Positions 41,501 through 56,658 are shown, numbered from the stretch's first letter. The stretch: DNA of 64,000 nucleotides from Arcobacteraceae bacterium (GCA_048268245.1 JBLWVX010000001.1:96001-160000); one strand, 5' to 3'. The notes: generated from the letters alone by a model not told the origin. Translations and numbers: made by a program.

Positions 41501-42626
41501 CTCTATATTATATGTAGAAGATGAAAAAAATGTACAAGAGGAATTAGCAGAAGTATTAGAATTTTACTGTAAAAATCTATATTTTGCAGATGATGGGAAA
41601 CAAGGATTAAAACAGTTTATACAATACAAGCCTGACATTATTATAACTGACATTAAAATGCCAATTATGGATGGAATTGAAATGTCTAAGGAAATAAAAG
41701 AGATAAATAAAGAGCAACATATTATATTCACAACTGCTTTTAGTGATATAGATTTTTTTCAAGAAGCAATTGAACTACAAGTTGATGGATATATAATAAA
41801 ACCTATTGATTTAACTCTATTAGAAAATAAAATCGAAAGTGTTATAAAAAATATAAAGTTAAAAGAAGAATTGTTTGAAAAAGAACAAATGTTATTACAA
41901 ACTTCAAAACTAGCTTCAATGGGAGAAATGATTGGTAATATTGCTCACCAATGGAAACAACCTTTATCAATAATTTCTACTTGTGCAAGTAGTCTAATAA
42001 TAGAACATGACCTTGACCAAATAAATAAAGAAAGTGTTCTTGCACGTTCTGAAAATATAATGTCTCAAACAGAGTATTTAAATAATACAATTAATGACTT
42101 TACAAATTTTTTTAAACCCAATGAACATAATAATAACTATAATGTAAAAAAGTTTTTAGATAAATGTATAGATTTAGTTCATAGTTCTTTTGAAGCAAAT
42201 ACTATTGAAACAATGAAAAAAGTAGATGATAGAATCAATTCTTATGGAGATCCAAGCCAATTAACACAAGCAATAATTAATATTTTAAATAATGCAAAAG
42301 ATGCTCTAAAAGCAGCTGAAAAACTACAAAAAAAACTTGTCTTTATAGTTACAGCAAAAGAAGATAATCATAACAATATTGAATTAATTATTAAAGATAA
42401 TGCAGGTGGTATTCCTGAAAATATAATAGAAAATGTATTTAATCCTTATTTTACTACAAAATCAAAAGATGAAGGTACAGGATTAGGTTTATATATTACT
42501 AAAACTATTATTACTAAAAAACTTAAAGGCAATATAAAAGTAGAAAATGAAGTATTTGACTTTGAAGGTATAACATACAAGGGTGCAAAATTTACTATAA
42601 CACTACCACTTGCTGTTCATAATTAG
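41487..42626 (+). CDS. hybrid receiver-histidine kinase
   Basis: REC (YVEDE, TDIKMP) followed by IAHQWKQP, DNAGG, GTGLGL. Start set at ATG 41487 after GAGGA. Confidence 0.9.
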   Translation: MQQINSILYVEDEKNVQEELAEVLEFYCKNLYFADDGKQGLKQFIQYKPDIIITDIKMPIMDGIEMSKEIKEINKEQHIIFTTAFSDIDFFQEAIELQVDGYIIKPIDLTLLENKIESVIKNIKLKEELFEKEQMLLQTSKLASMGEMIGNIAHQWKQPLSIISTCASSLIIEHDLDQINKESVLARSENIMSQTEYLNNTINDFTNFFKPNEHNNNYNVKKFLDKCIDLVHSSFEANTIETMKKVDDRINSYGDPSQLTQAIINILNNAKDALKAAEKLQKKLVFIVTAKEDNHNNIELIIKDNAGGIPENIIENVFNPYFTTKSKDEGTGLGLYITKTIITKKLKGNIKVENEVFDFEGITYKGAKFTITLPLAVHN

Positions 42627-42648: not shown

Positions 42649-43353
42649 TTATAAAAAAGTAGAAAGTAAACCAATTAATCCACCAAAAACAGCACCCCAA
42701 ACAACTAACCATCCTAGATGTTCTCTTATGATTTTTTGAATCATTTCTTTTACCATTTTAGGTGTTAATTCATCTAATCTTTTATTTACAATTGAACTTA
42801 ATTTATTGTAAATATCATCACTTAAATCATCTGATTTTAAAGCCTCATTTAAAACAGCTTGAAAAGAATCACTTTTTGAAATATCAACTATTGAACTTCT
42901 TAGTTTTTTTGTAAAAGGTTCTTTTAGAGGCTCTAAAGCTTGCTCTCCTCCAAACATTCCAAGCATTCCACCAAAAGATGACTCCATAACTGCACTTTTT
43001 AGTGAGTCATAAGCAGGTGTAAAATCTGTTTTATTTAAAATCTTTTCAAAATCAACAGTGTTTTTAGCACTATTTACCTCATCTTCAAAAAATCTTTTTA
43101 GATGTTCTTTTGTAAAGAACTGATTCATAAGTAAATCATGAATTGACTTTTTAAATTGTGAAAATTTATTTTCAATAACACCCGAACCATAAAGATATGG
43201 AACTTTTTCAAAAAGCATATGAATTGCAAGTGTATTTGTAAGTGAACCACTTAAAGCAAAAAGTCCTATTGTAAAAATAGTGTCATAGCCATTTGAATAA
43301 CCATAAGCCATAAGTAACAAAGCAGCTAAATTTGTAATATCAGATTTATTCAT
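42649..43353 (-). CDS. DUF445-family membrane protein
   Basis: TNTLAIHMLFEKVP and HLGWLVVWGAVFGGLIG motifs. Confidence 0.8.
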   Translation of the reverse strand: MNKSDITNLAALLLMAYGYSNGYDTIFTIGLFALSGSLTNTLAIHMLFEKVPYLYGSGVIENKFSQFKKSIHDLLMNQFFTKEHLKRFFEDEVNSAKNTVDFEKILNKTDFTPAYDSLKSAVMESSFGGMLGMFGGEQALEPLKEPFTKKLRSSIVDISKSDSFQAVLNEALKSDDLSDDIYNKLSSIVNKRLDELTPKMVKEMIQKIIREHLGWLVVWGAVFGGLIGLLSTFL

Positions 43354-43356
43354 TTG

Positions 43357-43386
43357 TAAAATCCCCCTAATTAAAAGGGGATTTTA
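43357..43386. terminator. inverted repeat downstream of phoX overlapping the DUF445 RBS
   Basis: TAAAATCCCC-N10-GGGGATTTTA. Confidence 0.45.
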
Positions 43387-43420
43387 ACATAAGTTTTGTA
43401 AGAAAAGTTTTTAAGCAGTT

Positions 43421-46400
43421 TTATTTTATTTCATAAATAGCAGTAGAACCACTTACTTCATAAGCAACCATAAGTAATGCACTTCCAGTTGGACTATTTT
43501 CAGCTTTTACAAACTTCATACCCTCTGGTGAAATATTTTCATTTTTATTTGATTTAATATATTTAACAAATTTAGAGTTTTGAGCATCTGTAATATCATA
43601 GATTACAATTGCATTTTGTCTTTCTAACCCAACAAAAGCATATGTTCTATCATTTACTTCACCAACAGCTAAAGCTTCTGGTTCAACTCCTTTATTACCA
43701 CTTCTTCTATCTTTTTCTCCATCATCTTGATTAAATAAATTTGGCATAAATTTTGCAGTTAATTTTGATAATTCATTTTTACTATCAAATACTAAAGTAC
43801 CTTCTTCATCCCAAATAGAGAATGATCTAGCACCAAAAGTATATAACTTTTCATAATCACCTGAACTATTTTTACCTAATTCATTATTCACTTTTAAATC
43901 ATTTTCATTTTCATAAGCAAATGCAATTGAAGAGTCTAAAGATAATTTACTAATCTTTGTTTCATTTGCATAGTCACCATACTCTCTTCCATCACCCTCA
44001 TTTGCTGTTACTAAATATGTTTTTGAACCTATCTTATAAGAAGCTATTGAATCTGGTTGATACATACCATATAAACCTTTATAAGTTTTAAGCATTGGAA
44101 TACCTTCTTCTTCAATATCTATAGCATTCTCTTCTTTTGAATGGTCTTTAAATCCTAAAGCAACAACTGAGTCAATCTTTTTAGAAGTAATATCAACAAT
44201 AGCTAATGCATTGTTTTCTTGAAGAATTACATAAGCTTTATTTCCTGAAACAGTTACATATTCAGGTTCTAAGTCTAAAGAAGCATCAACACCATCTTTT
44301 AATACTACATCACTTGGAATTTCAATACCATCAAAAGTTAAATCAGTATATGAGTAGTTACTGTTAACCTCAATTATTCCTACTGAACCTTTTGGATCAT
44401 ATGAGTAGTCACTATTTGGCTCACCCTCATTTGCTACAATGATTTTTGAACCATCTTCATTAAATGTAACCATATCTGGTAAATATCCAACCTCTATAGT
44501 CTTCATATGTGTTCCATTTGTATCAAATACAACAACAAAACCTTTCATTTGTTTTGATGAATCCTGTGAATCTACTTTTTCAACTGCTACTGCAACTTTT
44601 CCATTTGCTACTGCAACTGAGTTTACACTATTTCCGTAAGTTGATAAGTTAACTGATTTATAAGATGTTAAACTCATAGTTGTTTTATCTTTATCATAAA
44701 AAACTGTATTAATATCTAAAGCATTATTAGCTCCATTTGTAGTAAACATTCTATTTGTATCACTATCAAAAGCTACAATCTCGCTTCCACCTTCTATTGA
44801 AGTTTCTAATACAGCAAGCTTTTCAAAAGAGTTTAACTTTGGTGTTTCTTTTAACTCATCTAAGTTTTTAAATGGTCCTATATATCCAATAGTTGATTCT
44901 TTTTGAGCAAGAGTAGAAGATTGAGACTTCATAGGGTGTTGTGTTACAACAGATAAATATCCATATCCATTTGCTAAATTACTATACCAAAATGGTGAAG
45001 TCGTTTCAGAATCAAGAGGAGTTGTAAATGTTCTAGTTAACTCTTTAGTTTTAACATTATAAGCCCAAACAACATTATTCTCATGTTTACCTGTATCTTC
45101 ACCAATCATTAGAATGTCAGAGTTCTCTAAGAAAGTAACATTGTCAGGATTTGAAATACCATTTATGTCACAACTATTATTTGCATAAACAGAACCACTA
45201 TCATAAGTAGTTGGTATTCCACTTATTACTGCATTCATGTTTTTTACTACATACTCAGAGTCAATTGTAGTATCAGCAGTATCTTTTGCTGTTTGAGTAT
45301 TTACATCTAAAGAGTAAACAGCCCCACATTGATTATATGCTACTTTAATATCATTATTTCCACCAATGTCATATTTTGTGTTAGTTGTTCCACTTTTTTT
45401 ATTATCTTCCATTCCTCTTTCAACTGAACTCATTGATACATATAATTTTCCTGAGTTTTTATCAAAAGTAATACCCTCTTCTTTTCTAAACTCAGTTGTA
45501 GCTCCCATATAAGCAGCGTATCTTCTAGACTCTAATCTTGAAGCAGCTTTTTGCATTCCTTCTTTTAGGTTTAAACACTCAAACCCAACACTTGTATTAG
45601 TTGCAGTATAACCTGTAGGACAAGTACCATCACTATTTCCAGCTACTGTATCAAAAATATCTGAGAATTTAATTGCATCATTTGTTGCAATATTTCCATC
45701 TTTATCTAAATATTCTCTAATTTCACTATCTGTTGCATGACCTAAGTTAACCCATGTAATATCAGCTTCGCCAGCACCAACTCCAACTTGTGAAGTCTGA
45801 TTCCACTTAGCAGCATATAATGTACCTGCACTTAAATCTTTTGCTTTATCAGCAACAAACATAAATAGTCCAACATTTGTTCCATCATCTGATAAATATA
45901 CAGTTTTATTATCAGGCATTACATATGCTAACTCATGCGACATTCTTCCCATTGAGTAGTGTTTTGTATATTCTGGTTTACCATCTTTGATTTTTACTTC
46001 TGGATTCCAACCATAGTAGTATGGTGACATTTTAGTAGCATCACCTTTCCAGAATTTTGCAACCTCATCATAATACTTATTCCCTGTTAATCCAGTATTT
46101 GAATCGGCACCTTGCTCCACAGCTTTAGCATCTGGTTCATACTCTTCTGAACCTAAGTGAGATTCCCAAGGTGTTTTTTGACCTGCACAGTGAACAAAGC
46201 CACCAAATTCATCTTTTTGAGAGATAAACTTCATACTATTTTCTTTTGGACTTAATTCACCAGTTTGCTCATTTTGCTCTAACTCTACCATGTACATAGA
46301 GCCAACTTGACACTCAAACTGAGATACCATATATAAATTTCCATCTTTATTTAAAAATGATGTATAATCAAGTCCCGAACCAACTCCACTATTTGTACCA

Positions 46401-47185
46401 TTACAAATATATGGTGAACCATCATCTATAGCTCCTCTACTAAAAGTAATTACATCATCCATATAATCTTTTGATAAACCAAATACTTCACCATTATTAC
46501 TATCACCAGTAGCCATAATTGTTTTATATGAAATATTTTGAGTTTTACCATTTATTACAACTTCTGAAGATGCTTGTCTAGTTGTTTTAGTAGCATCAGT
46601 TGTAGGTGTTTGTATTTCTTTGAATTTTACATCTACTTTATTTGCAAACTTTTTACTTACATCAATCTTGATTTTTTTGATTTTTTCTTTTATATCTGCA
46701 TCATCTAATTTCTCAGATAGTTTATCAATAGATGAAAAATCTAAAGCAGAAGAAGAACTTCCTTCGATATCTTCAGGTAATTCAAAAGTTTCTGGAAGGT
46801 TATTTATATCATAATCAATTCCAGTTTTTTTACTCATTTTTGCAATAATAAATGCAGATAAGGCTGCACTTGAAACATTTTCATTTTGCTCAGCAATTGC
46901 AGCAATTGTAAGTTTTGAGCTAGGAGTTGCTTTTAATTCTTTTCCACCTATCACAAACTTACAAGTTTCACCCTCATTATATTTGTATTCCCCATTACTA
47001 TTTGTAGTACCATTAGTATCTCCACATGTATAATCGATATTTGCTAAATTTGGATTTAGATTCAATGTTCCTGTCGAACTTTGTGAATTGGATGTTTGTG
47101 AATAAGAACTTCCACATCCTATAAAAGTAATTGAAGCTAAAATAGCTGAAGCAACAAAACTCATTCTCAAATAATTTCTTTTCAT
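43421..47185 (-). CDS. phoX: PhoX-family alkaline phosphatase fused to choice-of-anchor-I beta-propeller; lipoprotein
   Basis: Lipobox FIGC. PhoX motifs HCAGQKTPWESHLGSEE, GRMSHE, NPDN, IGED. C-terminal ANEGEP, DLEPEY, LQENNA, QPDSIA, ANEGD, GARSFSIW, EPEA, GLER. Confidence 0.85.
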   Translation of the reverse strand: MKRNYLRMSFVASAILASITFIGCGSSYSQTSNSQSSTGTLNLNPNLANIDYTCGDTNGTTNSNGEYKYNEGETCKFVIGGKELKATPSSKLTIAAIAEQNENVSSAALSAFIIAKMSKKTGIDYDINNLPETFELPEDIEGSSSSALDFSSIDKLSEKLDDADIKEKIKKIKIDVSKKFANKVDVKFKEIQTPTTDATKTTRQASSEVVINGKTQNISYKTIMATGDSNNGEVFGLSKDYMDDVITFSRGAIDDGSPYICNGTNSGVGSGLDYTSFLNKDGNLYMVSQFECQVGSMYMVELEQNEQTGELSPKENSMKFISQKDEFGGFVHCAGQKTPWESHLGSEEYEPDAKAVEQGADSNTGLTGNKYYDEVAKFWKGDATKMSPYYYGWNPEVKIKDGKPEYTKHYSMGRMSHELAYVMPDNKTVYLSDDGTNVGLFMFVADKAKDLSAGTLYAAKWNQTSQVGVGAGEADITWVNLGHATDSEIREYLDKDGNIATNDAIKFSDIFDTVAGNSDGTCPTGYTATNTSVGFECLNLKEGMQKAASRLESRRYAAYMGATTEFRKEEGITFDKNSGKLYVSMSSVERGMEDNKKSGTTNTKYDIGGNNDIKVAYNQCGAVYSLDVNTQTAKDTADTTIDSEYVVKNMNAVISGIPTTYDSGSVYANNSCDINGISNPDNVTFLENSDILMIGEDTGKHENNVVWAYNVKTKELTRTFTTPLDSETTSPFWYSNLANGYGYLSVVTQHPMKSQSSTLAQKESTIGYIGPFKNLDELKETPKLNSFEKLAVLETSIEGGSEIVAFDSDTNRMFTTNGANNALDINTVFYDKDKTTMSLTSYKSVNLSTYGNSVNSVAVANGKVAVAVEKVDSQDSSKQMKGFVVVFDTNGTHMKTIEVGYLPDMVTFNEDGSKIIVANEGEPNSDYSYDPKGSVGIIEVNSNYSYTDLTFDGIEIPSDVVLKDGVDASLDLEPEYVTVSGNKAYVILQENNALAIVDITSKKIDSVVALGFKDHSKEENAIDIEEEGIPMLKTYKGLYGMYQPDSIASYKIGSKTYLVTANEGDGREYGDYANETKISKLSLDSSIAFAYENENDLKVNNELGKNSSGDYEKLYTFGARSFSIWDEEGTLVFDSKNELSKLTAKFMPNLFNQDDGEKDRRSGNKGVEPEALAVGEVNDRTYAFVGLERQNAIVIYDITDAQNSKFVKYIKSNKNENISPEGMKFVKAENSPTGSALLMVAYEVSGSTAIYEIK

Positions 47186-47237
47186 AATTTTCCTTTATTA
47201 TACATAATATGTAAACTTTCATGTTATTTGTGCGGAA

Positions 47238-47270
47238 ATTTTAATAAAGAAAAATTACAAGAAAGTTACA
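47238..47270 (-). promoter_or_regulatory. Pho-box-like tandem repeat plus -10 box for phoX
   Basis: Minus strand TGTAAC-TTTC-TTGTAAT-N10-TAAAAT. Confidence 0.75.
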
Positions 47271-47304
47271 AAAAAACAATGGTTACCAAGAAGGTTAAAG
47301 CTTT

Positions 47305-47340
47305 AAAGAAATTATCTTATCTTAGATAGTTCTTTCTTTT
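47305..47340 (-). terminator. probable terminator of the four-gene operon
   Basis: Minus strand AAAGAACTATCT-aagata-AGATAATTTCTTT imperfect stem after the stop at 47359. Confidence 0.45.
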
Positions 47341-47358
47341 TTAAAGCTTAAATAGATT

Positions 47359-47673
47359 TTATTTAAACAATTTTACATAATTATGTTCAGGAGTCTTTCG
47401 TAAGAAAAAAACAAGCTTAAAGGGCTTCTTTTCAAGCTTTACGAAAGAGTGTTTCTTTAAAAATGGGTATCTCTTAGTAACCATGATTTTATCATTTTCA
47501 TCTAGTATATTATAGTTATATAAACCACATTTATTTTTACTGTTACTTTTACAAATAACTTTTGCTTTTTGTGTATTTATATCATAAGAAACATCTAAAT
47601 TTATTGTATAACTAACAGGATGAGCGATACCAAAACTAAATAAAAAACTCAATATTAATAAAACTTTATTCAC
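47359..47673 (-). CDS. small exported hypothetical protein
   Basis: Signal peptide ending GIA|HP; two Cys; overlaps the DUF1007 gene. Confidence 0.75.
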   Translation of the reverse strand: MNKVLLILSFLFSFGIAHPVSYTINLDVSYDINTQKAKVICKSNSKNKCGLYNYNILDENDKIMVTKRYPFLKKHSFVKLEKKPFKLVFFLRKTPEHNYVKLFK

Positions 47674-48151
47674 TTGAAACTCCTAAACAAAAATCATACT
47701 CGCTTTTTTGAACATCCAATTTAGTATGAGAACTAACTTCATTTAATTTATATGCCATATAAATTTTCTCATCCATTGTACACATTGTAAACACTTCATC
47801 TAGTTTTATATCAATATCAAAAGTAAGAGAAACTCTTCGTTTCTCAAACTTAACATCAATGTTAGAAGGGTTTATTTTGTACTCTTCATTATCAGCTAAG
47901 AATATATTATAGTTATTATTCTCAAGTGTTTTAAAATGTACCTTTATAAACTCTTCTTTTTCATTTAAGTCAAATTTTTTATTAGAGTTTTTATCAAAAT
48001 CAAAAAGTAAAACCCTTGAATTAAGCTTATCAAACAACCATTCATTTTTTATTTTTCCATCTTCAAAAAAGATATTTGAATCTATAAAAAAATGAGGGTG
48101 TGCCTTTAAACTAACAGTAGCTATAAATAAAATAACTAAAATCTTTTTCAT
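47666..48151 (-). CDS. DUF1007 (ZevA-like) periplasmic metal-binding protein
   Basis: Signal peptide then AHPHFFID; WLFD; EF-hand-like DKNSNKKFDLNE; adjacent to an RcnA/ZevB-like permease. Confidence 0.75.
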   Translation of the reverse strand: MKKILVILFIATVSLKAHPHFFIDSNIFFEDGKIKNEWLFDKLNSRVLLFDFDKNSNKKFDLNEKEEFIKVHFKTLENNNYNIFLADNEEYKINPSNIDVKFEKRRVSLTFDIDIKLDEVFTMCTMDEKIYMAYKLNEVSSHTKLDVQKSEYDFCLGVSSE

Positions 48152-48879
48152 ACTAATAAAAATACTCCTAATCCTAATAATAAAACAATTGCCCCGTAAG
48201 TTAAAATATTCATAAACATCTTGTAGCTATTAAACTTTTTATTTTTAACCTGAGTAGCAAGTATAGCTGCTAATGAAATAGTAAGACCCATACCAATACT
48301 CATAGTTATAGCACTTAGAATACCTAAGTTTATATACCCTAGAATCATTGAAAATAGTACTATTGTCATAACTCCTGGGCAAGGTACTATTCCTATTGAT
48401 AAACTAACAGCAAAAAGATTTTTATTCTTTAACTTTTGAGTTTTTTCTTCTTCATTTCTGTCTTTAATTACTTCATATAATAAATACAAAGCAATTAAGA
48501 TTATAAATACAGCAGAAACCTTATACATATTGGCATTTATCTCTTGAAAATGTTTTGTAACTGACCTTTGAAAAAAAAGATATAAGACCCCAGTTATTAA
48601 AAGGGCTGATACTGTATGAATAATTGAAGTTAAAAAACCTGCTTTAAAAGCCTCTTTTATTTTTGCTTCTTTTGCCAAAAAGTAACTAGCAATTACCATC
48701 TTACCATGACCTGGTCCTAAAGCATGAACTAAACCATAAAGAAATGACACAAATAAAATAGAGAAAAAAATCATACTTTCACCACTTTCTAGCCTATCAA
48801 AATAATCAGAAATCAGTAGGTTTAACTCTTGTTGTTTTGAAACTATAAAACTTAAAAAACTTGCATAAAACTCTATCAT
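48148..48879 (-). CDS. RcnA/ZevB-like nickel/cobalt-family metal transporter
   Basis: YGLVHALGPGHGK and GIVPCPG motifs; multiple TM helices. Confidence 0.88.
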   Translation of the reverse strand: MIEFYASFLSFIVSKQQELNLLISDYFDRLESGESMIFFSILFVSFLYGLVHALGPGHGKMVIASYFLAKEAKIKEAFKAGFLTSIIHTVSALLITGVLYLFFQRSVTKHFQEINANMYKVSAVFIILIALYLLYEVIKDRNEEEKTQKLKNKNLFAVSLSIGIVPCPGVMTIVLFSMILGYINLGILSAITMSIGMGLTISLAAILATQVKNKKFNSYKMFMNILTYGAIVLLLGLGVFLLV

Positions 48880-50624
48880 TTTTGAACCTTTTGTAAATGT
48901 GTCATTTGAGCATCTTTTATTTTTTTATGAACATTTTTTGTAGGTTTAATATGAGTGTCTCTACCATAAATATAACTTTGTTCATCAACTATTACTTTAT
49001 ATGCTTTATTTAATTTTAGAGCTCTTTGTTTACTTGGTATTATAAGATGAGTGATATCTTCTTTTAATTTTTCTATTTCATTCTTTTTTAATTTCCAATT
49101 TTGTTTTAAAACAAGTTCAGGATTTTCTAGTTTAGATATCAAATCTCTTTCAATATTTTCACTATCTTTTTCCCACTCTTTTACAAAAAACTTATTTATT
49201 ACTTCTTCATTGGATCTAAACTCATCTCCTGAACTATTTAACCTTAAATATCTAACATATTCAGTTTGTCCATCATCTAAAACTCTATCTTTTACACCTT
49301 TTAAATTTTTTTGACTCCAATGATACCAACCATATGACATATCTACTCCTTCAAACTTCCTTTGAAATACAAAAGTAGAATCAGCAGTTGCTCCTATATT
49401 ACTATGACACCCCATACAAAAAAGTGTCTCCTCATATGTTTGAGGTCTTAACTCACCTTTTTTATCTTCAATAAACCCTTGATATAACCAACCTCTTTTA
49501 TTACTTAATCCAGTTTCCATATTTCCTAAATATACATCAACTCTTTCTGGGAAATCATGTTTTTCTTTTATTTCTGCATAACCTAGATTTAAAAGTTGAG
49601 TATAGTTATTCCAGTGATGTTTCTTTGCATATCTAAACTCTTTTATTCTTGATGCCATTTGTACTTCATTATTTTTAATATCTAAATATCTTACAGTATG
49701 AGCAAACTCAGTACCAATAGGATATAAACCAGGTGCAATATTTTGCTTTCCATCTTCTAAAAGCTTTTTTGCTTCTCCTACATAAGACATAGAAAAATCT
49801 TTTAACTTTCTTGTTTTCAAATCATATTTAGGTGTCATCCAGTTAAAAACAACTGTTGTTGCTAAATCTAATTTATTATTTTGGTTTAAATCAACTCCAT
49901 ATTTTCTTTCATCTACTTCTTTAATCAAAATATCTTTTTGTTTTATTAAAGATTCAATTACAGCTAAATTTATAGAATATAACTCTTTATCAAATACGCC
50001 TTTTTCATTTAAATAAAAACTCTTAGAAAGTCTAATCAACACATCATCAAAACTTCCATTTGTAGGCCAAAAAGTTCCTAAAAAAGGATAGTATGCAAAA
50101 GCCCTCCAGCCTGTATATTCACCTTTTTTATCTATATCAAAGCCATCTTTATCAAAAGAAAAAGCTACATCTGGTATGTAACCATCCCATTTACCATTGT
50201 TATTAAAATCCCAAGATTTTGAAATATTTTCAAGTTTATCTTTTAAAATTACTTTTCCAAATTCATTTTTATAATTGTCCTTTTTTACATAAGCTAATAT
50301 TTCTTCATCAGAAATATTTTTTATTTCATTAGTTCTATCTTTAAAAAGATTAGTCCATGGGTTTTTAAAAGCAGAAGATGGAAAATCATATGCTTCTTGT
50401 AAATCTGCATCTTCTAAAGTAAAATTAGGTTCTTTATTTTTTGTATGACAGCTAAAACAGGGATTATGTAAAATATTTTCATTCAAAGCATTTACTGTTT
50501 TTGTATAACATTGACTTGAAATATATGCTGTTTTATTATATAAACTTTTACTTTTTAAATCTTGTGCAAAACTATAATTTGCAAATAAAAATAGAGTTGT
50601 AAAAAGTATATTTTTCTTATTCAT
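48876..50624 (-). CDS. exported uncharacterised protein with two CXXCH motifs (putative diheme c-type cytochrome)
   Basis: Signal peptide SFA|Q; CFSCH (50459-50445) and CMGCH (49418-49404); Dx[DN]xNG-like loops. Confidence 0.75.
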   Translation of the reverse strand: MNKKNILFTTLFLFANYSFAQDLKSKSLYNKTAYISSQCYTKTVNALNENILHNPCFSCHTKNKEPNFTLEDADLQEAYDFPSSAFKNPWTNLFKDRTNEIKNISDEEILAYVKKDNYKNEFGKVILKDKLENISKSWDFNNNGKWDGYIPDVAFSFDKDGFDIDKKGEYTGWRAFAYYPFLGTFWPTNGSFDDVLIRLSKSFYLNEKGVFDKELYSINLAVIESLIKQKDILIKEVDERKYGVDLNQNNKLDLATTVVFNWMTPKYDLKTRKLKDFSMSYVGEAKKLLEDGKQNIAPGLYPIGTEFAHTVRYLDIKNNEVQMASRIKEFRYAKKHHWNNYTQLLNLGYAEIKEKHDFPERVDVYLGNMETGLSNKRGWLYQGFIEDKKGELRPQTYEETLFCMGCHSNIGATADSTFVFQRKFEGVDMSYGWYHWSQKNLKGVKDRVLDDGQTEYVRYLRLNSSGDEFRSNEEVINKFFVKEWEKDSENIERDLISKLENPELVLKQNWKLKKNEIEKLKEDITHLIIPSKQRALKLNKAYKVIVDEQSYIYGRDTHIKPTKNVHKKIKDAQMTHLQKVQK

Positions 50625-50650
50625 TATTTGTCCTCATCTAAAATTTTGTG

Positions 50651-50683
50651 ATTATAAAGAGATAAAATTACAATTTAGTAACA
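50651..50683 (-). promoter_or_regulatory. Pho-box-like tandem repeat plus -10 box for the two-CXXCH operon
   Basis: Minus strand TGTTAC-TAAA-TTGTAAT-N10-TATAAT. Confidence 0.75.
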
Positions 50684-50713
50684 ATTTTATTTATGGTCAC
50701 TAAAAAAGGTTAC

Positions 50714-50746
50714 TGTTACCTTTTTGTAATCAAAGAAAACTACAAT
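50714..50746 (+). promoter_or_regulatory. Pho-box-like tandem repeat plus -10 box for the olsF-like gene
   Basis: Plus strand TGTTAC-CTTT-TTGTAAT-N10-TACAAT, then AAGGAG RBS. Confidence 0.75.
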
Positions 50747-50763
50747 TACATCAAGGAGAATAT

Positions 50764-52476
50764 ATGATTGATGTACAAAAAGAAATAGAAAAAAAGTTTC
50801 CAAATATAAATAAAAAACAGAACTTTTTGAAAAAGTCTTTATTTAAAATAGCTAGAAAGATAGTACATGAAGACTCTATAAACCAATTTTTATCACAAAA
50901 TTCCCACTTAAAAGGTTTTGAGTTTGTAGATGCTGTTTTAGACTATTTTGACTTTGACTATACTGTTTCAAGTAATGACTTGCAAAATATTCCTAGTTCA
51001 GGAAAAGTTGTGATTATTGCGAACCATCCTTTAGGTGGCTTAGATGCTTTATGTTTACTTAGATTAATCTCACAAGTAAGAAAAGATGTAAAAATTGTAG
51101 CAAATGATTTTCTAGTTGGATTTGAAGCTTTAAACTCACTTTTGATTCCAATAGATAACTATAAAATTAGACAATCAAAAAAAGATATTAAAAATATCTA
51201 TGAAGCACTAAACAATGAGGAAGCAATTATTATCTTCCCAGCAGGTGAAGTAAGCCGAGCTACTTCAAAAGGAATAAAAGATCCCGTTTGGAATAAAGGT
51301 TTTTTAAACTTTGCACAAAATACAGGAGCTTCTATACTTCCTATATATTTAGATGCAAAGAATTCTAAGACTTTTTATACAGTATCTGTTTTAAATAAAA
51401 CCTTTTCAACATTACTTTTATCAAATGAAATGTTTAAAAAGAAATCAAAAAGAATTAATATTAAAATTGGAGAGATTATTCCAAATGAGAATATCTTACC
51501 AAAAGGTATAAATAAAAAGTTTTTAGTAAACATTTATAGAAAACATTTATATGCATTAAAAAAAGGAAAAAAATCTTTTTTTCAAACACAATCAGCAATT
51601 GCCCATCCACAAAGAAGAGCAGATATATTATCAGAGCTTAAAAATTCACAATTAATTGGTGAAACAAAAGATGGTAAAGAAATATATCTTTATGATTATA
51701 CAGAAGACTCTGTAGTACTAAAAGAACTTGGAAGATTAAGAGAAATATCTTTTAGAAAAGTTGGTGAGGGTATCAATAAAAAAAGAGATACAGACAAGTT
51801 TGACATATATTATCAACACATTATTTTATGGGATAAAAATGATTTAGAAATAGTTGGCTCTTATAGAATTGGCAATTCTGATTTTATCTATAAAAATATT
51901 GGAGTTAAAGGTTTTTATTCAAACAAACTATTTGATTTTAATGAAGATATGACTCCTTATTTAAAAAATTCACTTGAACTCGGAAGAAGTTTTGTTCAGC
52001 CTAAATATTGGGGGACAAGAGCTTTAGATTACCTATGGTATGGAATTGGAGCTTATCTTAAGAAAAACCCACATATAAAATATATGTTTGGACCTGTATC
52101 AATGAGTGCATCTTTTCCAAAAGCTGCAAAAGATATGATGGTTTATTACTATTCCCATTACTTTAAAACAAAAGCCAATTTAGTAACTGCTAAAACTCCG
52201 TACCAATATGCAAATAGTATAAATGAAGTAAAAGAAATTTTTAACCTAGAAGATAAAAAAGCAGATTTCAAATTTTTAAAATCAACACTTTCAAATATGA
52301 ACTGTGCTGTACCAACACTTTATAAACAGTATTCAGATATTACAGAAGAGGGTGGTGTTAAATTTTGTGATTTCAATATTGACCCTGAGTTTGCAGATTG
52401 TGTAGATGGATTTATCTTAGTTGAAGTTGACAAGATAAAAGAAAGCGCTAGAAAAAGATATATAGATAAGGATTAG
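50764..52476 (+). CDS. olsF: bifunctional acyltransferase (PlsC-like + GNAT), OlsF-like ornithine lipid synthase
   Basis: N-terminal NHPLGGLD (HX4D) and FPAGEVS; C-terminal ELGRLREISFR, VGSYR, LELGRSFV, LDYLWYGIG, PTLYKQY, FNIDPEF. Confidence 0.75.
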   Translation: MIDVQKEIEKKFPNINKKQNFLKKSLFKIARKIVHEDSINQFLSQNSHLKGFEFVDAVLDYFDFDYTVSSNDLQNIPSSGKVVIIANHPLGGLDALCLLRLISQVRKDVKIVANDFLVGFEALNSLLIPIDNYKIRQSKKDIKNIYEALNNEEAIIIFPAGEVSRATSKGIKDPVWNKGFLNFAQNTGASILPIYLDAKNSKTFYTVSVLNKTFSTLLLSNEMFKKKSKRINIKIGEIIPNENILPKGINKKFLVNIYRKHLYALKKGKKSFFQTQSAIAHPQRRADILSELKNSQLIGETKDGKEIYLYDYTEDSVVLKELGRLREISFRKVGEGINKKRDTDKFDIYYQHIILWDKNDLEIVGSYRIGNSDFIYKNIGVKGFYSNKLFDFNEDMTPYLKNSLELGRSFVQPKYWGTRALDYLWYGIGAYLKKNPHIKYMFGPVSMSASFPKAAKDMMVYYYSHYFKTKANLVTAKTPYQYANSINEVKEIFNLEDKKADFKFLKSTLSNMNCAVPTLYKQYSDITEEGGVKFCDFNIDPEFADCVDGFILVEVDKIKESARKRYIDKD

Positions 52477-52490
52477 TCCTTATCTATATA
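52459..52490. terminator. bidirectional terminator between convergent genes
   Basis: TATATAGATAAGGA-ttag-TCCTTATCTATATA, 14-bp perfect inverted repeat. Confidence 0.75.
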
Positions 52491-52493
52491 AAA

Positions 52494-54110
52494 TTAATCC
52501 AATCTACAATACATAACTTCATCAACAACTGATTTAGCTATTTGATCAGTTTCTACAATAATATGCTCTAAGTGTAAACCTTCAAGTAGTTTTTTATCTT
52601 GTTCACTTGTAACAGTTATAATAGTTTTCGCATTATGAGTTAACTCATCTACAGCATGACATATAAGCTGCAAGGCTTCTGGGTTATTAACAGCAACAAT
52701 AACAGCTGAAGCTTTTTTAATATTTACAGAGTTTAAGATGTGTCTATGAGCAGCATTTCCAAATACAATTGGCTCACCTCTTTGCTCACCTAACTGATAA
52801 AACTTCATATTATGCTCAATTACAACATAATCTTGTCCTAACATTTTTAATTCTTTTACAATTGATTGTCCAAATCTTCCATATCCAAGAACTACAACGT
52901 GATTTTTCTTATCTTCATCTACATGGTGAGTAGAGTTAATCATCATAACATCATCAGGTACAAGTTTAGCTGCAGCTCTTGATAAATTCTTTAGAATAAT
53001 TGGTGTTAAAACCATAGATATTACAATAGTAACAATTAACACTTGAGAATATGTAGGATCTATTAAATCTTTACTTCTTGCAAGTTCTAAGATTGCAAGT
53101 GAAAACTCACCAATTTGAATTAAAGATAATGCTGTTTTAAATGCAACTCTTTTATTATCTTCAAACTTTACAATTGTATAAATAATTGCATACTTTACTC
53201 CCATTAAAAGAGGAAGTAAAAGAAGAATTATCCAAATATACTCAGCAATAACTGTAAAGTTAATTTGCATACCAACTGTAATAAAGAATACACCTAATAA
53301 AATATTTCTAAATGGTATTAAATCAGCTTCAACTTGATGTTTAAATTTTGTCTCACTAATCATCATACCTGCAACAAATGCCCCAAGAGAATATGTAAAC
53401 CCAAAATAGTGAGCCATATAAGATGAACCAATTGCAAGTAAAAGTACTGAACCTACAAAAAGTTCATCAGTTTTAGTTTTAGAAACAATTGTTAAGAATG
53501 GTTCAAGTAAATACTTTCCTGAAACATAAAGTAATGTTAATAAAATAAACGCAGCAACTAATGTCTCAAATATCATATAACCTACACTTTTATCATCTCC
53601 CATAGTAAAGAAAGAAATCATTAAAAGAATAGGAATTACAGCGATATCTTGCATAATTAAAATACCTAAAACTCTTCTACCATGAGGTCTATTTATTTCT
53701 TTTGTTTCATTAAAAGTTTTAAGTACAATGGCTGTTGAGGACAAGGCAAGTGCAGCACCTATAATAACAGATGTTTCAGTTGGAAGTCCAATTGCAAAAT
53801 AACATACTAAAAATACAAAGGTAGCAGTAACTAAAATTTGTAAACTACCTGTTACAAATACTTCCCTTTTCATCTTTTTTAGATGCTCTATGGAAAACTC
53901 TAATCCAATAGTAAACATTAAAAAAACAACACCAAATTCAGCTATTTCTTTTAATGTATAGTTATTTACAGCATCATGTAATTCAAAAGCATATGCTATA
54001 ATTGTTCCTGTAAAAATATACCCAATAATAGTAGGTAAGTGAAACTTTTTTAGGATTAAATTTACAATTAATGCAATTGCAATTGTTGAGACAATAATCC
54101 CTAACATCAA
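52494..54110 (-). CDS. Kef-type cation:proton antiporter with TrkA-N domain
   Basis: AEFGVVFLMFTIGLEFS, LSSTAIV, QDIA, GEFS, LGYGRFG. Confidence 0.92.
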   Translation of the reverse strand: MMLGIIVSTIAIALIVNLILKKFHLPTIIGYIFTGTIIAYAFELHDAVNNYTLKEIAEFGVVFLMFTIGLEFSIEHLKKMKREVFVTGSLQILVTATFVFLVCYFAIGLPTETSVIIGAALALSSTAIVLKTFNETKEINRPHGRRVLGILIMQDIAVIPILLMISFFTMGDDKSVGYMIFETLVAAFILLTLLYVSGKYLLEPFLTIVSKTKTDELFVGSVLLLAIGSSYMAHYFGFTYSLGAFVAGMMISETKFKHQVEADLIPFRNILLGVFFITVGMQINFTVIAEYIWIILLLLPLLMGVKYAIIYTIVKFEDNKRVAFKTALSLIQIGEFSLAILELARSKDLIDPTYSQVLIVTIVISMVLTPIILKNLSRAAAKLVPDDVMMINSTHHVDEDKKNHVVVLGYGRFGQSIVKELKMLGQDYVVIEHNMKFYQLGEQRGEPIVFGNAAHRHILNSVNIKKASAVIVAVNNPEALQLICHAVDELTHNAKTIITVTSEQDKKLLEGLHLEHIIVETDQIAKSVVDEVMYCRLD

Positions 54111-54119
54111 TATTCTCCT

Positions 54120-56234
54120 TTATTTATAGTGCATCTGCTTATAGCCTTCAAGCCTTTTTTTGTAAGCAGAGTTTAGCATGGGGTTTTTTGAATCTAAAAA
54201 ATCAATAGCTAAACACTCTTGATTTCCTCGACCAATTCTTCCTAAATATTGGACAAGTCTACCATAATATGAAATTGGTGTAGCAAACATTATCGTATTT
54301 AGGTGAGGAAAATCTATTCCCTCTCCAAAATAAGAAGTTGTTGCTAAAATTAAAGATGATTCTCTAACCTTATTCATATTTTCAACTTGCTCTTTTTTAT
54401 TCATACTTCCATGAATACTCACATACTCTATTTTTTCTTCAAATAAAAGATTTTCCAAAATATTTATATGCTCAATTCTATCTGTTAGAATTAAAATCTT
54501 TCTAGATATATTATCTTTTATTTGCTGAATTATTAAGTTATTTCTAGCTTCATCAATACAAAGTTCATTAATTATAGTTGCATAATTATCAGCTTCACTT
54601 GTAAATTCAGTTCTTATTATCTTTAGCTTATTAGTATGAGTTCTTTTCTTTTTATACTCATATGCAACTTCACCTAATTGTTGAAATAAAATAGGTTGTA
54701 ATCCATCTTTTCTATTTGGAGTTGCACTTAAACCTAGAATATATTTTCCCTTGAAATTTTTAATAATTTGCTCAAAAGTAACTGCTGGAATATGATGGCA
54801 TTCATCAACTATCACAAAAGAGTATTTGTTGATAATCTCAGGAGCATTTTTTAAACTTTGCATTGTTGCAATATCAATTATTCCATTTAATTTATTTTTT
54901 CCTTTACCTAAGTAACCTACATCTTTTTTATTGTAATCAAAGTAATCAACAAATCTTTCAATCCACTGGTTTAAAAGCATATTTTTATTTACAACTATCA
55001 TTGTACTAACAGCTCTTTGTTCAAACATCTTAGCACCAATCAATGTTTTCCCAAAACCAGGAGGAGCTACACAAATAGAAAAATCTGTTTTTAAAATCTG
55101 TTTTATTGCTTCATCTTGTTCAGGTCTTAAAGTAAATTTCACTTTTTTTGTATGTATTTGCTCAAAGTGTCTTTTATCATCAATGGTAAACTTAACACCA
55201 TTTTCATTAAAAAAATCACATACTTTTGTTTTAAGCCCTCTTGGAAGCATAAGATGATTCTCATCTTCTTCAAAACCTTGAATAACCCTTGGAGTATTAT
55301 ATAAGGGCTTTCTAAGACTTAATAAGACTTTGATTTGAGGGTTCTCAAAAGAAGCAAAGGATTTAAGCTTATTTATTAATGACTTTGATAAATTTGCAGT
55401 TGGAATATAAATAAAATCAAATAAAACCATCTCTATCATATCAAGTGGAAAATCAATATTTCCAAAATCTTTTTCATCATTTGCAGAACTGCTTACTTGA
55501 GAAAACTTATAAATAGTCTCTTTATTTATTTTTGAGACATTATTTAAAACCATCCATTGGTCTTCATAAATCTTATTTGTATTAGTATCAATAAAAACAG
55601 TTTTATTCTTTTTTCTATAATTTAAATGTAGTGGTAACTCTATACTATTTCCAAGACTAGCTTTTGTAGCAAACTCTTTATTTGGATAAAGTTTTGCAGA
55701 AATATTTGCTTTTTTCATTACAAACTTACCAAAATTGTGTACTATTTTAGAACTAACTGGCTCCTCAAAAAAAATCCATGCAATTAAACTATTATAAGAG
55801 TTCAACTCATAATATGCTCTAATATTTAAAGAGTTTAAAGCAATTTGCAATTTAAATTTATCTTCATCAAGTATTTCAAAAGCTATAAATTTTGAATTAT
55901 TATTTGAGTCAATACAATAAGTTGCTAAGTGAACTAAACCTCTTAAATGTGACTCTATGTCATGATTTGTAATAGGAAGGAAATCTTCCCCTTTGAAAGT
56001 TTGAGTTACAGGATAAAAGCCTTGTTTATTTCCATCTTTACTAATCCATTTTTTTGCATAAATATCACTTCTTGCAAGAAATAGAGATTTAAAAATCTCT
56101 ATCTTTTCATCTTTTGTAAAGTTTTTCTTTAACTTAGCTTCTTCTTGTATTTGAAACTCTAAGGCTTTAATCTCCTCTTCTATTTGTTTCTTTTGAGAAT
56201 AAAGTGCTTCTAGTTTTATCTTAAGATTTTTCAT
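54120..56234 (-). CDS. SF2 (ResIII-type) DEAD/DEAH helicase with N-terminal degenerate primase-like domain
   Basis: LRPEQ, APPGFGKT, DECHH, LSATP, QYLGRIGR. The N-terminus resembles a TOTE-type AEP domain. Start set at ATG 56234. Confidence 0.82.
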   Translation of the reverse strand: MKNLKIKLEALYSQKKQIEEEIKALEFQIQEEAKLKKNFTKDEKIEIFKSLFLARSDIYAKKWISKDGNKQGFYPVTQTFKGEDFLPITNHDIESHLRGLVHLATYCIDSNNNSKFIAFEILDEDKFKLQIALNSLNIRAYYELNSYNSLIAWIFFEEPVSSKIVHNFGKFVMKKANISAKLYPNKEFATKASLGNSIELPLHLNYRKKNKTVFIDTNTNKIYEDQWMVLNNVSKINKETIYKFSQVSSSANDEKDFGNIDFPLDMIEMVLFDFIYIPTANLSKSLINKLKSFASFENPQIKVLLSLRKPLYNTPRVIQGFEEDENHLMLPRGLKTKVCDFFNENGVKFTIDDKRHFEQIHTKKVKFTLRPEQDEAIKQILKTDFSICVAPPGFGKTLIGAKMFEQRAVSTMIVVNKNMLLNQWIERFVDYFDYNKKDVGYLGKGKNKLNGIIDIATMQSLKNAPEIINKYSFVIVDECHHIPAVTFEQIIKNFKGKYILGLSATPNRKDGLQPILFQQLGEVAYEYKKKRTHTNKLKIIRTEFTSEADNYATIINELCIDEARNNLIIQQIKDNISRKILILTDRIEHINILENLLFEEKIEYVSIHGSMNKKEQVENMNKVRESSLILATTSYFGEGIDFPHLNTIMFATPISYYGRLVQYLGRIGRGNQECLAIDFLDSKNPMLNSAYKKRLEGYKQMHYK

Positions 56235-56658
56235 GAGCAATTGCGGATGGACCAACTACAATATTATTGATTTTTTGTTCAATCTCATTATATCTACTTT
56301 TTAGCTCAGAATTTTTTCGAATTCCTCTTCCTTCAAATTTTCCCTTAGGGTCAATTATAAGTTCGTTATATCGCATTTCACCTATAACTCTACCCTCTTC
56401 TAAAATCTGAACTTCATTACAATCAATTTTACCATCAAAAAGGCCATTTACTACTAGATTATTAGCTTTTATATCGCCAATAACCTCACCTTCTGTTCCA
56501 ATTGATATAACATCAGCTTCTAAAATAACACCTTCAAACTTTCCATCAATATGTACAGTACCTTTTGTACTAATACCACCTATTATACAAGTGCCTGCAG
56601 CAACTACTGTTGCTCCATTTGATGTTGATCTCTTATTAGACTTATTAAAGACTCCCAT
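56221..56658 (-). CDS. bactofilin (polymer-forming cytoskeletal protein, CcmA-like)
   Basis: VHIDGKFEG, VIGDIKANNLVVNG beta-helix repeats; downstream of an M23 peptidase. Confidence 0.92.
   Translation of the reverse strand: MGVFNKSNKRSTSNGATVVAAGTCIIGGISTKGTVHIDGKFEGVILEADVISIGTEGEVIGDIKANNLVVNGLFDGKIDCNEVQILEEGRVIGEMRYNELIIDPKGKFEGRGIRKNSELKSRYNEIEQKINNIVVGPSAIAHEKS

Follow-up and report, generated by a model that had tools for sequence, protein, structure and literature searches.

A predicted two-heme protein family as a genomic partner of Sec-exported PhoX phosphatases, and its candidate Pho-regulated operon in an Arcobacteraceae bacterium

Bacteria have three main alkaline phosphatases; one of them, PhoX, is key to phosphorus recycling, and its need for ferric iron ties the phosphorus cycle to the iron cycle. 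In MauG, a periplasmic two-heme protein that matures methylamine dehydrogenase, an open heme reacts with an oxidant, and a second heme passes oxidising equivalents on to a site in a different protein. The five-coordinate heme of cytochromes c'-beta and P460 is a binding site for small ligands; we know of no link between these proteins and phosphatases. According to PMC4223295, the PhoX centre consists of two Fe3+, three Ca2+, a bridging oxo group and a thiolate ligand, and its authors speculate that export through Tat, the twin-arginine translocation system, serves iron insertion in the cytoplasm. ZevAB of Haemophilus is described, in PMC3417392, as a periplasmic component and a permease that are needed under zinc restriction. 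Here, we compare these systems with a four-gene operon in a window of 64,000 nucleotides (nt), the whole stretch of DNA that was analysed (~27% G+C), which was drawn from the 2.68-Mb genome of an Arcobacteraceae bacterium (G000:C1:96001-160000); named homologues point to the same family. The first gene of the operon encodes a 582-amino-acid (aa) protein with two CXXCH heme-binding motifs, and a phoX gene lies beside the operon. This heme protein is very probably a functional partner of PhoX-type phosphoesterases under the control of the phosphate-starvation (Pho) response.

The conserved unit is the heme protein together with a PhoX of the non-Tat type, and the heme protein is a dedicated genomic partner of this phosphatase. 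Homologues were collected from one genome per species, which gave 80 loci in Campylobacterota, sulfur-oxidising and methanotrophic Gammaproteobacteria, Rhodobacter, Myxococcota and Desulfobulbaceae. The PhoX part (residues ~186-776) of the 1254-aa phosphatase encoded in the window served as the query for neighbours. A PhoX gene is found beside the heme gene in 78 of the 80 loci. It lies upstream on the same strand in 72, is divergent in three, and is downstream in three, behind genes for a NicO-family permease, a DUF1007 protein and a small protein. The two loci without PhoX have the heme gene at the start of a contig. Clustering of 1001 neighbouring open reading frames (ORFs) left PhoX as the sole widely shared neighbour, the next cluster being present in 14 loci. 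A preliminary description, made from the window alone, had supposed a linkage between homologues of the heme protein and phosphatase genes; this linkage turned out to be far tighter than it guessed, with fusions adding to the adjacent genes.

The same pairing is seen in denser samples. Among 201 genomes drawn evenly from the order of the source organism, 24 contain the heme gene; all 24 have the non-Tat type of PhoX, and the heme gene never occurs without PhoX. By coordinates, 26 of 26 heme loci in this sample are within 2.2 kb of PhoX, including divergent ~660-aa paralogues of the heme protein, which stand downstream of PhoX in five of five cases. In a Myxococcota sample, likewise drawn evenly, the heme gene is present in 22 of 201 genomes at 25 loci, and PhoX is upstream at 23 of them. 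Nine of these partners were found by tblastn and 14 belong to a second PhoX subfamily, seen by Pfam and then by tblastn; the two exceptions are a fusion to PD40 repeats and a gene that contains an internal stop. A third even sample, of 301 genomes from the gammaproteobacterial class to which a Thiodiazotropha genome belongs, gave matches in 19, with PhoX adjacent at 16 of 20 interpretable loci. Pairwise distances of the heme protein and of PhoX are correlated over 59 loci (Mantel r 0.79; 0 of 999 permutations as high), a value to which shared species history contributes. Since the heme gene never occurs without PhoX in the order sample, while PhoX is sometimes found without the heme gene, the heme protein is an accessory of PhoX and not the reverse.

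The phosphatase encoded in the window combines a PhoX domain (residues ~186-776) with a choice-of-anchor I domain (~798-1253), as Pfam confirmed for the neighbour that had been read as PhoX at the outset. It matches PF05787 at 74.2 bits, against a cut-off of 24, and is the sole match to this model in the genome. The same fusion recurs in Campylobacterota (L031, L035, L036, L039, L050, L059, L060, L062 and L067), and the PhoX domain alone is found in most other lineages. The cysteine of HCAGQKTPW, the glutamate of GR..HE and the DD pair of the 1254-aa protein align with their counterparts in Pseudomonas fluorescens PhoX, and C174, E259, D274 and D275 are invariant in alignment A3. We take Cys179 of PhoX to have an active-site role. 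D292 is named as a PhoX active-site residue in PMC11098088, and by our own count it would correspond to the DD pair. Most of the PhoX metal-site positions are invariant across 13 partner PhoX sequences.

The partnered phosphatases differ from canonical PhoX in their export signals. The N-terminus of the 1254-aa protein, MKRNYLRMSFVASAILASITFIGCGSS, is a lipoprotein signal for the general secretory (Sec) pathway and not a Tat signal. The N-termini of the partner PhoX proteins are of the Sec or lipoprotein type; a loose RR pattern occurs in two of 69, both with lipoboxes. By comparison, canonical full-length PhoX is found in eight genomes of the order sample, none of which has the heme gene, and six of the seven canonical loci examined show a clear twin-arginine signal. 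TatC is present in the genome of the window, so the Sec route is not imposed by the absence of Tat.

The 582-aa protein carries a Sec signal peptide, heme site 1 at C56-x-x-C59-H60 (CFSCH, 56-60), heme site 2 at C403-x-x-C406-H407 (CMGCH, 403-407) and an additional cysteine, Cys39, in SSQCYTKT. It is predicted to be a periplasmic protein with two covalent heme c sites. An alignment of 30 diverse sequences shows no variation at C56, C59, H60, C403, C406 and H407 and almost none at C39. In a set of 128 sequences, preselected by length and at least one CXXCH, the CXXCH residues are 97-99% conserved and C39 98%, so that the two motifs and the extra cysteine picked out in this one protein are features of the whole family. 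The 128-sequence alignment contains no conserved Met or extra His. Conserved Arg, Lys, Tyr, Glu and Asp positions are many, with about 45 highly conserved charged or aromatic residues over 560 aa; R198, R331, R393, R422, K328, K335, Y216, Y313 and Y332 are strongly conserved. Two DxNxNG-like segments, WDFNNNGKWDG (138-148) and VDLNQNNKLD (244-253), had been read as Ca-loop-like. Both are present and D245 is nearly invariant in the 30 diverse homologues, but the first loop is gapped in some of them.

The family is large and has no characterised member. More than 2215 homologues were found among 7999 scored candidates, and an exhaustive search of representatives gave 527 clusters at 50% identity (343 at E<=1e-10). 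The precomputed label PF27085.1 is attached to the window's protein and to all 120 homologues listed, and atlas clusters named 'Aq_1262' (PF27085) match at a score of 0.98. The copy of Pfam that was scanned predates the PF27085 model. Its only match on the 582-aa protein was P460 (PF16694), sub-threshold at 25.7 bits against a cut-off of 27, over profile positions 83-124 of 125 around the second CXXCH. Solved structures gave nothing at E<=1 against the family profile, and no mention of PF27085 or aq_1262 was found in the literature, which agrees with the preliminary description, to whose author no characterised function of a heme c protein in this role was known.

An AlphaFold2 model made from the 30-sequence alignment is confident, with a mean predicted local distance difference test score of 91.7 and a predicted template modelling score of 0.91. 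Foldseek returned nothing at E<=0.001 with this model; its best rows were cytochrome P460 and cytochrome c'-beta, at E 0.34-2.2. In an all-against-representatives structural search with the whole model, the five top matches were all P460/c'-beta proteins (Z 5.5, 5.0, 4.8, 4.4 and 3.8). These alignments span 128-135 residues and lie in the middle of the query only (model ~127-433), covering most of the target; the next rows are unrelated (Z 2.3). The middling scores suggest that residues ~130-430 form a P460/c'-beta-like sheet core with insertions, which would carry heme site 2. The modelled layout is an N-terminal segment with heme 1 and Cys39, followed by the core and a helical C-terminal part (430-582), and apart from the core the predicted fold may be new. 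Structure and profile searches, which the preliminary description had proposed, thus suggest a P460/c'-beta-like core and give no match to a characterised family at threshold. From conservation and fold, Cys39 may be a heme ligand and the second heme may be five-coordinate. K328, K335 and K423 are candidates for the residue of a P460-type Lys-heme cross-link.

In some proteins, the heme domain and its partner are joined in one chain. Fusions were surveyed among 49 heme-protein homologues of at least 1020 aa, and three of these (P0271, P0304 and P0318) combine the heme domain with PhoX. Of 21 fused forms inspected, none has lost a CXXCH motif and 20 retain the QC[YF]T cysteine motif; forms with PD40 repeats add a third CXXCH. 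The PD40 fusions with the third CXXCH (P0272-P0307, P0309, L132 and L283) come from Desulfobacterota, Chromatiaceae and some Myxococcota, and in G548 a PD40 fusion stands in tandem behind an ordinary PhoX-heme pair. Two other representatives, P0121 and P0164, carry an eight-bladed propeller of the cytochrome-d1 type (PF02239, E 1e-71 to 1e-75).

The assignment to the Pho response comes from the promoter. The operon, phoX and the divergent gene olsF have similar promoters, in which a tandem box, GTWAC-N6-GTAAT, is followed exactly 10 nt on by a TANNNT hexamer in the -10 position. The product of OlsF is a phosphorus-free membrane lipid. The composite GTWAC-N6-GTAAY-N10-TANNNT occurs three times in the window against 0.01 expected, and three or more copies were seen in none of 100 shuffles. 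The whole genome contains seven copies, compared with 0-1 in five random genomes matched to it in dinucleotide composition. Taken without its -10 hexamer, the tandem box shows no enrichment (18 in the genome, 13-20 in the random ones). Of the four copies outside the window, three precede genes, at 67 nt from pstS, 63 nt from pstC-pstA-pstB-phoU-psiE and 65 nt from a gene for an ATP-grasp/DUF6815 protein, and one is apparently inside a coding sequence. Six of the seven start 49-84 nt ahead of start codons, as do, at 49-86 nt, 12 of 13 matches in 2.28 Mb of related loci. The composite is kept before the heme operon, phoX and olsF in L035 and L036, is also ahead of olsF in L059, L062 and L067, and precedes PhoX in L032 and L044, where PhoX comes before the heme gene.

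The box has the features expected of a Pho box, namely direct repeats with an 11-bp period, a position in place of the -35 element, a fixed distance to the -10 hexamer and copies at the pst genes. It is credible as such because the other promoter copies precede only pstS, pstCAB-phoU and one ATP-grasp gene, and we regard it as a candidate Pho box of Arcobacteraceae. Because the box is common to pstS, pstCAB-phoU, phoX and olsF, the operon most likely belongs to the phosphate-starvation regulon. The tandem box that the preliminary description had noticed at the operon, phoX and olsF is, together with its -10 hexamer, non-random and extends to the pst genes. It resembles the PhosR box of Campylobacter jejuni, which is presumably GTTTC-N6-GTTTC. 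A Pho box of the Escherichia coli type was tried upstream of PhoX elsewhere and set aside as too weak: it occurs at 0.34 per kb against a background of 0.046 per kb, and matches with at most three mismatches were found in six of 58 regions.

The box also marks genes beyond this operon. The ATP-grasp/DUF6815 protein behind the composite has 341 aa (G000:C3:108219; locus L112 485-1510) and is a candidate new member of the phosphate-starvation regulon in the source organism. At the pst locus (G000:C4:24000-32000, L113), an EAL-GGDEF-CBS gene separates pstS from pstC, each of the two has its own box copy, and psiE follows phoU. In a member of the Sulfurimonadaceae, the composite precedes a gene for a 771-aa GT4 glycosyltransferase (L049 13862-16177, minus strand), which may serve glycolipid remodelling under phosphate limitation.

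In the operon, four minus-strand ORFs of 582, 243, 161 and 104 aa are arranged head-to-tail over 47359-50624 (Table 1). As read directly from the sequence, the start of the permease gene and the stop of the heme gene share an ATGA (48876-48879), the start of the DUF1007 gene overlaps the permease stop by the four nucleotides of a second ATGA (48148-48151), and the 104-aa gene overlaps the DUF1007 gene by 8 nt, GTGAATAA (47666-47673). These coordinates and overlaps are exactly those from which translational coupling of the four genes had been proposed. olsF is divergent from the operon, and phoX lies downstream of it. The predicted mature DUF1007 protein begins with His-Pro-His (cleavage between KA and HPH) and the mature 104-aa protein with His-Pro (between IA and HPV), which confirms another early observation on these two proteins.

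Table 1. Features of the window around the heme-protein operon
Feature	Coordinates	Strand	Description
Heme-protein gene	48876..50624	-	582-aa exported two-CXXCH protein, family PF27085 'Aq_1262'
NicO/RcnA-family permease gene	48148..48879	-	243 aa; HALGPGHGK motif; Pfam PF03824, 8.6e-22
DUF1007 gene	47666..48151	-	161-aa exported protein; Pfam PF06226, 1.1e-17
Small secreted protein gene	47359..47673	-	104 aa, GTG start; lineage-restricted, no family
1254-aa lipoprotein gene (phoX)	43421..47185	-	PhoX-type phosphatase domain and choice-of-anchor I domain
olsF	50764..52476	+	Bifunctional ornithine-lipid synthase; NCBIfam NF052615 equivalog, 839 bits vs cut-off 620
Box copy at heme operon	50651..50682	-	Candidate Pho box; GTTAC-N6-GTAAT and TATAAT (-10); begins 58 nt before heme-gene start codon
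Box copy at phoX	47238..47269	-	Candidate Pho box; GTAAC-N6-GTAAT and TAAAAT; begins 84 nt before phoX start codon
Box copy at olsF	50715..50746	+	Candidate Pho box; GTTAC-N6-GTAAT and TACAAT; begins 49 nt before olsF start codon
Flanking gene	41460..42626	+	Receiver-histidine kinase hybrid
Flanking gene	42649..43353	-	DUF445 membrane protein
Flanking gene	52494..54110	-	Kef-type Na/H-exchanger with TrkA-N domain
Flanking gene	54120..56255	-	711-aa primase-helicase protein
Flanking gene	56221..56658	-	Bactofilin

Other properties of the region can be summarised briefly. The 243-aa permease scores 60 bits with the NCBIfam RcnA model, against a cut-off of 195. The 104-aa protein has no match in Pfam or NCBIfam, and its homologues form only eight clusters, each of 102-104 aa and all from close relatives. 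The possibility that it is a DUF1007 paralogue was rejected, as its similarity to the DUF1007 protein is not significant beyond the signal peptide. A hairpin 3' of the 104-aa gene is not significant (z -1.03), promoter and terminator scans gave sites no more numerous than in shuffles, and Rfam has no match in 43000-53000. Metatranscriptome contigs (run X20) touch parts of phoX, the permease gene (48513-48758), the heme gene (49221-49449) and olsF; level, strand and condition cannot be read from them, and the uncovered parts are uninformative. Among the flanking genes, those for the DUF445 protein and OlsF accompany the phoX region in several Arcobacteraceae loci. In the 711-aa protein, a ResIII/DEAD helicase is joined to an AEP-TOTE primase-like domain (PF22548, 1.2e-51), an arrangement that has the layout of a TOTE conflict (defence) system.

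The metal-transport genes are less general than the heme protein. The NicO permease, DUF1007 and small-protein genes stand beside the heme gene in five of the 80 species loci, and in the order sample the transporter genes accompany it in three of 24 genomes (G000, G071 and G086). Permease orthologues with 57-58% identity directly follow the heme gene in G071 and G086 only. NicO homologues are present in 57 of the 201 order-sample genomes, mostly without the heme gene, and the more distant ones (41-47% identity) are in genomes that lack it. The gene for the 104-aa protein follows DUF1007 in L031, L035, L036 and L109. The three genes are thus a lineage-specific addition. A NicO/RcnA-like permease and a DUF1007 protein are indeed encoded here, as first described, but the pair is not part of the conserved module. 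Since it is so rarely beside the heme gene, the system is better called a PhoX partner than a metal-handling operon.

What could a two-heme protein do for a phosphatase? The preliminary description had proposed that the operon might load or redox-poise the cofactor of the phosphatase, or might mobilise phosphorus from a refractory source. Our preferred, tentative reading, to which we give a probability of roughly 0.35-0.4, is that of a redox helper acting in the periplasm on the Fe3+-Ca2+ centre of a PhoX that is exported unfolded. Classical PhoX would be exported by Tat in a folded state, its two-Fe3+/three-Ca2+ centre presumably being loaded in the cytoplasm. The partnered PhoX would cross the membrane unfolded and would then take up and keep its ferric iron in the periplasm. 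The two-heme protein would trade electrons with the PhoX metal centre, oxidising Fe2+ to Fe3+ during assembly or restoring Fe3+ when the iron has been reduced in low-oxygen or sulfidic habitats. An oxidant would react at the open P460/c'-beta-like heme, and the other heme, possibly ligated by His and Cys39, would be a relay. In the Arcobacter/Sulfurospirillum lineage, the NicO permease, DUF1007 and the 104-aa protein may supply or shuttle the metal. This model accounts for the contrast between Tat and Sec export and for the presence of the metal-handling genes, and MauG offers a functional precedent for it. A complex prediction for the PhoX domain (A3 residues 27-612) and residues 21-432 of the heme protein, with the C-terminal 150 residues omitted, gave 0.33, 0.18 and 0.11 against a mark of 0.32; its output was 'no answer', and it counts neither for nor against the model.

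Several observations weigh against such a helper. In the order sample, ten genomes with this non-Tat type of PhoX lack the heme gene even by the family profile, so PhoX can mature without the heme protein. The contrast between Tat and Sec export may simply follow the phylogeny of PhoX subfamilies. Ten of the 49 long homologues have the heme domain fused to an N-terminal PF04185 phosphoesterase (AcpA/phospholipase C type), and one locus with such a fusion has no PhoX within 2.7 kb upstream. The PF04185 family is not known to use ferric iron, so a helper specific to the iron of PhoX leaves these fusions unexplained. Maturation factors are also seldom fused to their clients, and fusion suggests joint catalysis. 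A metagenome scan seeded with the PF04185 fusions found two fusions and 78 unfused phosphoesterases, and the heme gene was near none of the 78; close unfused relatives are mostly of the Sec or lipoprotein type without a heme partner. The heme domain is fused to PD40/TolB-like propellers in 36 of the 49 (37 counting P0304) and to the cytochrome-d1-type propeller in P0121 and P0164, which fits a general redox module. Taken together, the PF04185 fusions and the PhoX genes without a heme protein argue against a strictly PhoX-cofactor-specific and essential role. The heme module is tied to phosphoester hydrolysis via two unrelated enzyme families, PhoX and PF04185, and its fusions suggest that it also behaves as a redox module on propeller domains. 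The idea that the heme module always marks a switch from Tat to Sec was dropped, because the unfused PF04185 relatives are mostly Sec or lipoprotein proteins already and have no heme gene nearby.

The tie to two unrelated phosphoesterase families fits a role at the phosphoryl-binding site and not at one cofactor, as would be expected if reduced phosphorus were oxidised. The phosphatase site would bind phosphite or a similar compound, the hemes would remove electrons, and the pair would act as a periplasmic phosphite:cytochrome c oxidoreductase that provides phosphate for Pst. Known phosphite-use genes are under Pho-regulon control, as this operon likely is. An anion pocket could be built from the conserved Arg, Lys and Tyr residues, and hemes of the open P460 type are catalytic. 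At a phosphatase site, however, no known chemistry lets a heme c withdraw a hydride or two electrons from a P-H bond, and the clustered neighbours of the pair include no phosphite transporter or ptx/htx genes. PMC12704751 reports that PhoA, PafA and P. fluorescens PhoX oxidise phosphite as a weak promiscuous activity, but the activity given there for PhoX is extremely low. On balance, we consider phosphite oxidation by the pair unlikely. It is improbable that PhoX or PF04185 enzymes with the Aq_1262 module form a new class of periplasmic redox phosphatases, in which metal site and hemes would be one enzyme that oxidises reduced phosphorus and passes electrons to the cytochrome pool. We are similarly doubtful that the cytochrome reduces Fe(III) on phosphate or organic phosphate (ferric phytate, Fe-bound esters) and thereby frees substrates for the phosphatase, with NicO/DUF1007 taking up the released metal in the window's lineage. 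Release of iron-bound phosphorus would cover an association with any phosphoesterase, whether PhoX, PhoX with choice-of-anchor I or PF04185, and would give the co-translated transporter a role. The hosts include many interface-dwelling sulfur oxidisers, methanotrophs, phototrophs and Desulfobulbaceae, and in interface habitats Fe(III) traps phosphate. On the other hand, a soluble periplasmic protein or lipoprotein with two hemes and one P460-like pocket is unlike the multiheme cytochromes that reduce Fe(III), tight adjacency and fusion are not needed for such divided labour, and the transporter is absent at 75 of the 80 loci.

The fold match to c'-beta/P460 and the one-to-one gene pairing and fusion would also suit a regulatory subunit, whose heme would respond to a bound gas or to redox state (O2, NO or sulfide) and switch the phosphatase on or off. 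The conserved Cys is a possible heme ligand, and Cys-ligated heme is typical of sensor or low-potential hemes. We nevertheless hold a sensor to be quite improbable, because two hemes and the many conserved charged and aromatic residues look more like an enzyme and the redox gating of PhoX has no known precedent. Least of all do we expect an unrelated ZevAB-like operon for zinc, nickel or cobalt uptake with an accessory cytochrome and an incidental phoX neighbour. The DUF1007 and NicO pair has what we take to be the ZevAB layout, and NicO genes are widespread in the order, mostly away from the heme gene. However, the heme gene follows PhoX and not the transporter in 72 of the 80 loci, the transporter is adjacent in five only, and the promoter box of the operon is also that of the pst genes; for the heme protein, metal uptake is already largely refuted.

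Literature searches, based on listings and text passages without supplements, turned up no account of a phosphatase with a cytochrome partner, including PhoX with cytochrome c, and work on phosphate starvation and c-type cytochromes did not describe the PhoX-heme pairing. We rate the PhoX-heme module as outside the known kinds of system, and it points to an undescribed redox step in bacterial phosphorus scavenging. Across several phyla, a large set of PhoX proteins with Sec or lipoprotein export is tied to a two-heme protein that is as yet uncharacterised, through neighbouring genes and, in three instances, through a fusion. If the heme protein builds or maintains the iron centre, it would be a new kind of periplasmic metallo-cofactor helper, and this would explain how PhoX functions in sulfidic habitats low in oxygen. 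If its contribution is redox chemistry on top of phosphoester hydrolysis, the module would represent a new enzymology of phosphorus acquisition, and as redox phosphatases the pairs would open a Pho-regulated route into the reduced-phosphorus pool for sulfur oxidisers, methanotrophs, phototrophs and myxobacteria. In either case, a family of at least 527 sequence clusters so far without a function receives a testable one, and Arcobacteraceae a candidate Pho box.

Finally, the locus can be set against its closest described relatives. The DUF1007 periplasmic protein encoded beside a NicO/RcnA-family permease resembles ZevAB of Haemophilus influenzae and systems of the RcnA type; we assume here that ZevAB is itself a DUF1007 and NicO pair. 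Unlike these systems, the present pair stands, with translational coupling, downstream of a Pho-type box and a heme-protein gene; the permease comes first, and an extra 104-aa secreted protein follows. MauG is likewise a periplasmic two-heme protein encoded beside its client enzyme, a likeness that is a functional analogy only. The 582-aa protein has no Pfam match to MauG or the diheme cytochrome c peroxidases at E<=0.01 and none among the PDB-profile or listed structural matches. Unlike in MauG, the client here would be a metal centre and not tryptophan side chains, and natural fusions to the client exist. The core of the protein aligns with 128-135 of the 135-158 residues of P460/c'-beta structures from Methylococcus capsulatus (6HIU/9HRK), Nitrosomonas europaea (2JE3/7S5O) and Thermus thermophilus (8BRK/7EAD), and its second CXXCH stands where the Pfam P460 model puts the C-terminal heme motif. 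Identity to these proteins is 9-17% and the Pfam score sub-threshold. They are single-heme proteins of ~135-190 aa, in contrast to the 582-aa protein with its extra N-terminal heme site, insertions and helical C-terminal part. The neighbouring phosphatase belongs to Pfam PhoX and keeps the active-site Cys, Glu and Asp-Asp of the classical enzymes of P. fluorescens (3ZWU/4AMF) and C. jejuni. It is, however, a distant subfamily (E 0.007 pairwise, 6e-12 by profile), and unlike the classical Tat-exported PhoX it has a Sec/lipoprotein signal, a fusion to choice-of-anchor I and a heme-protein partner.

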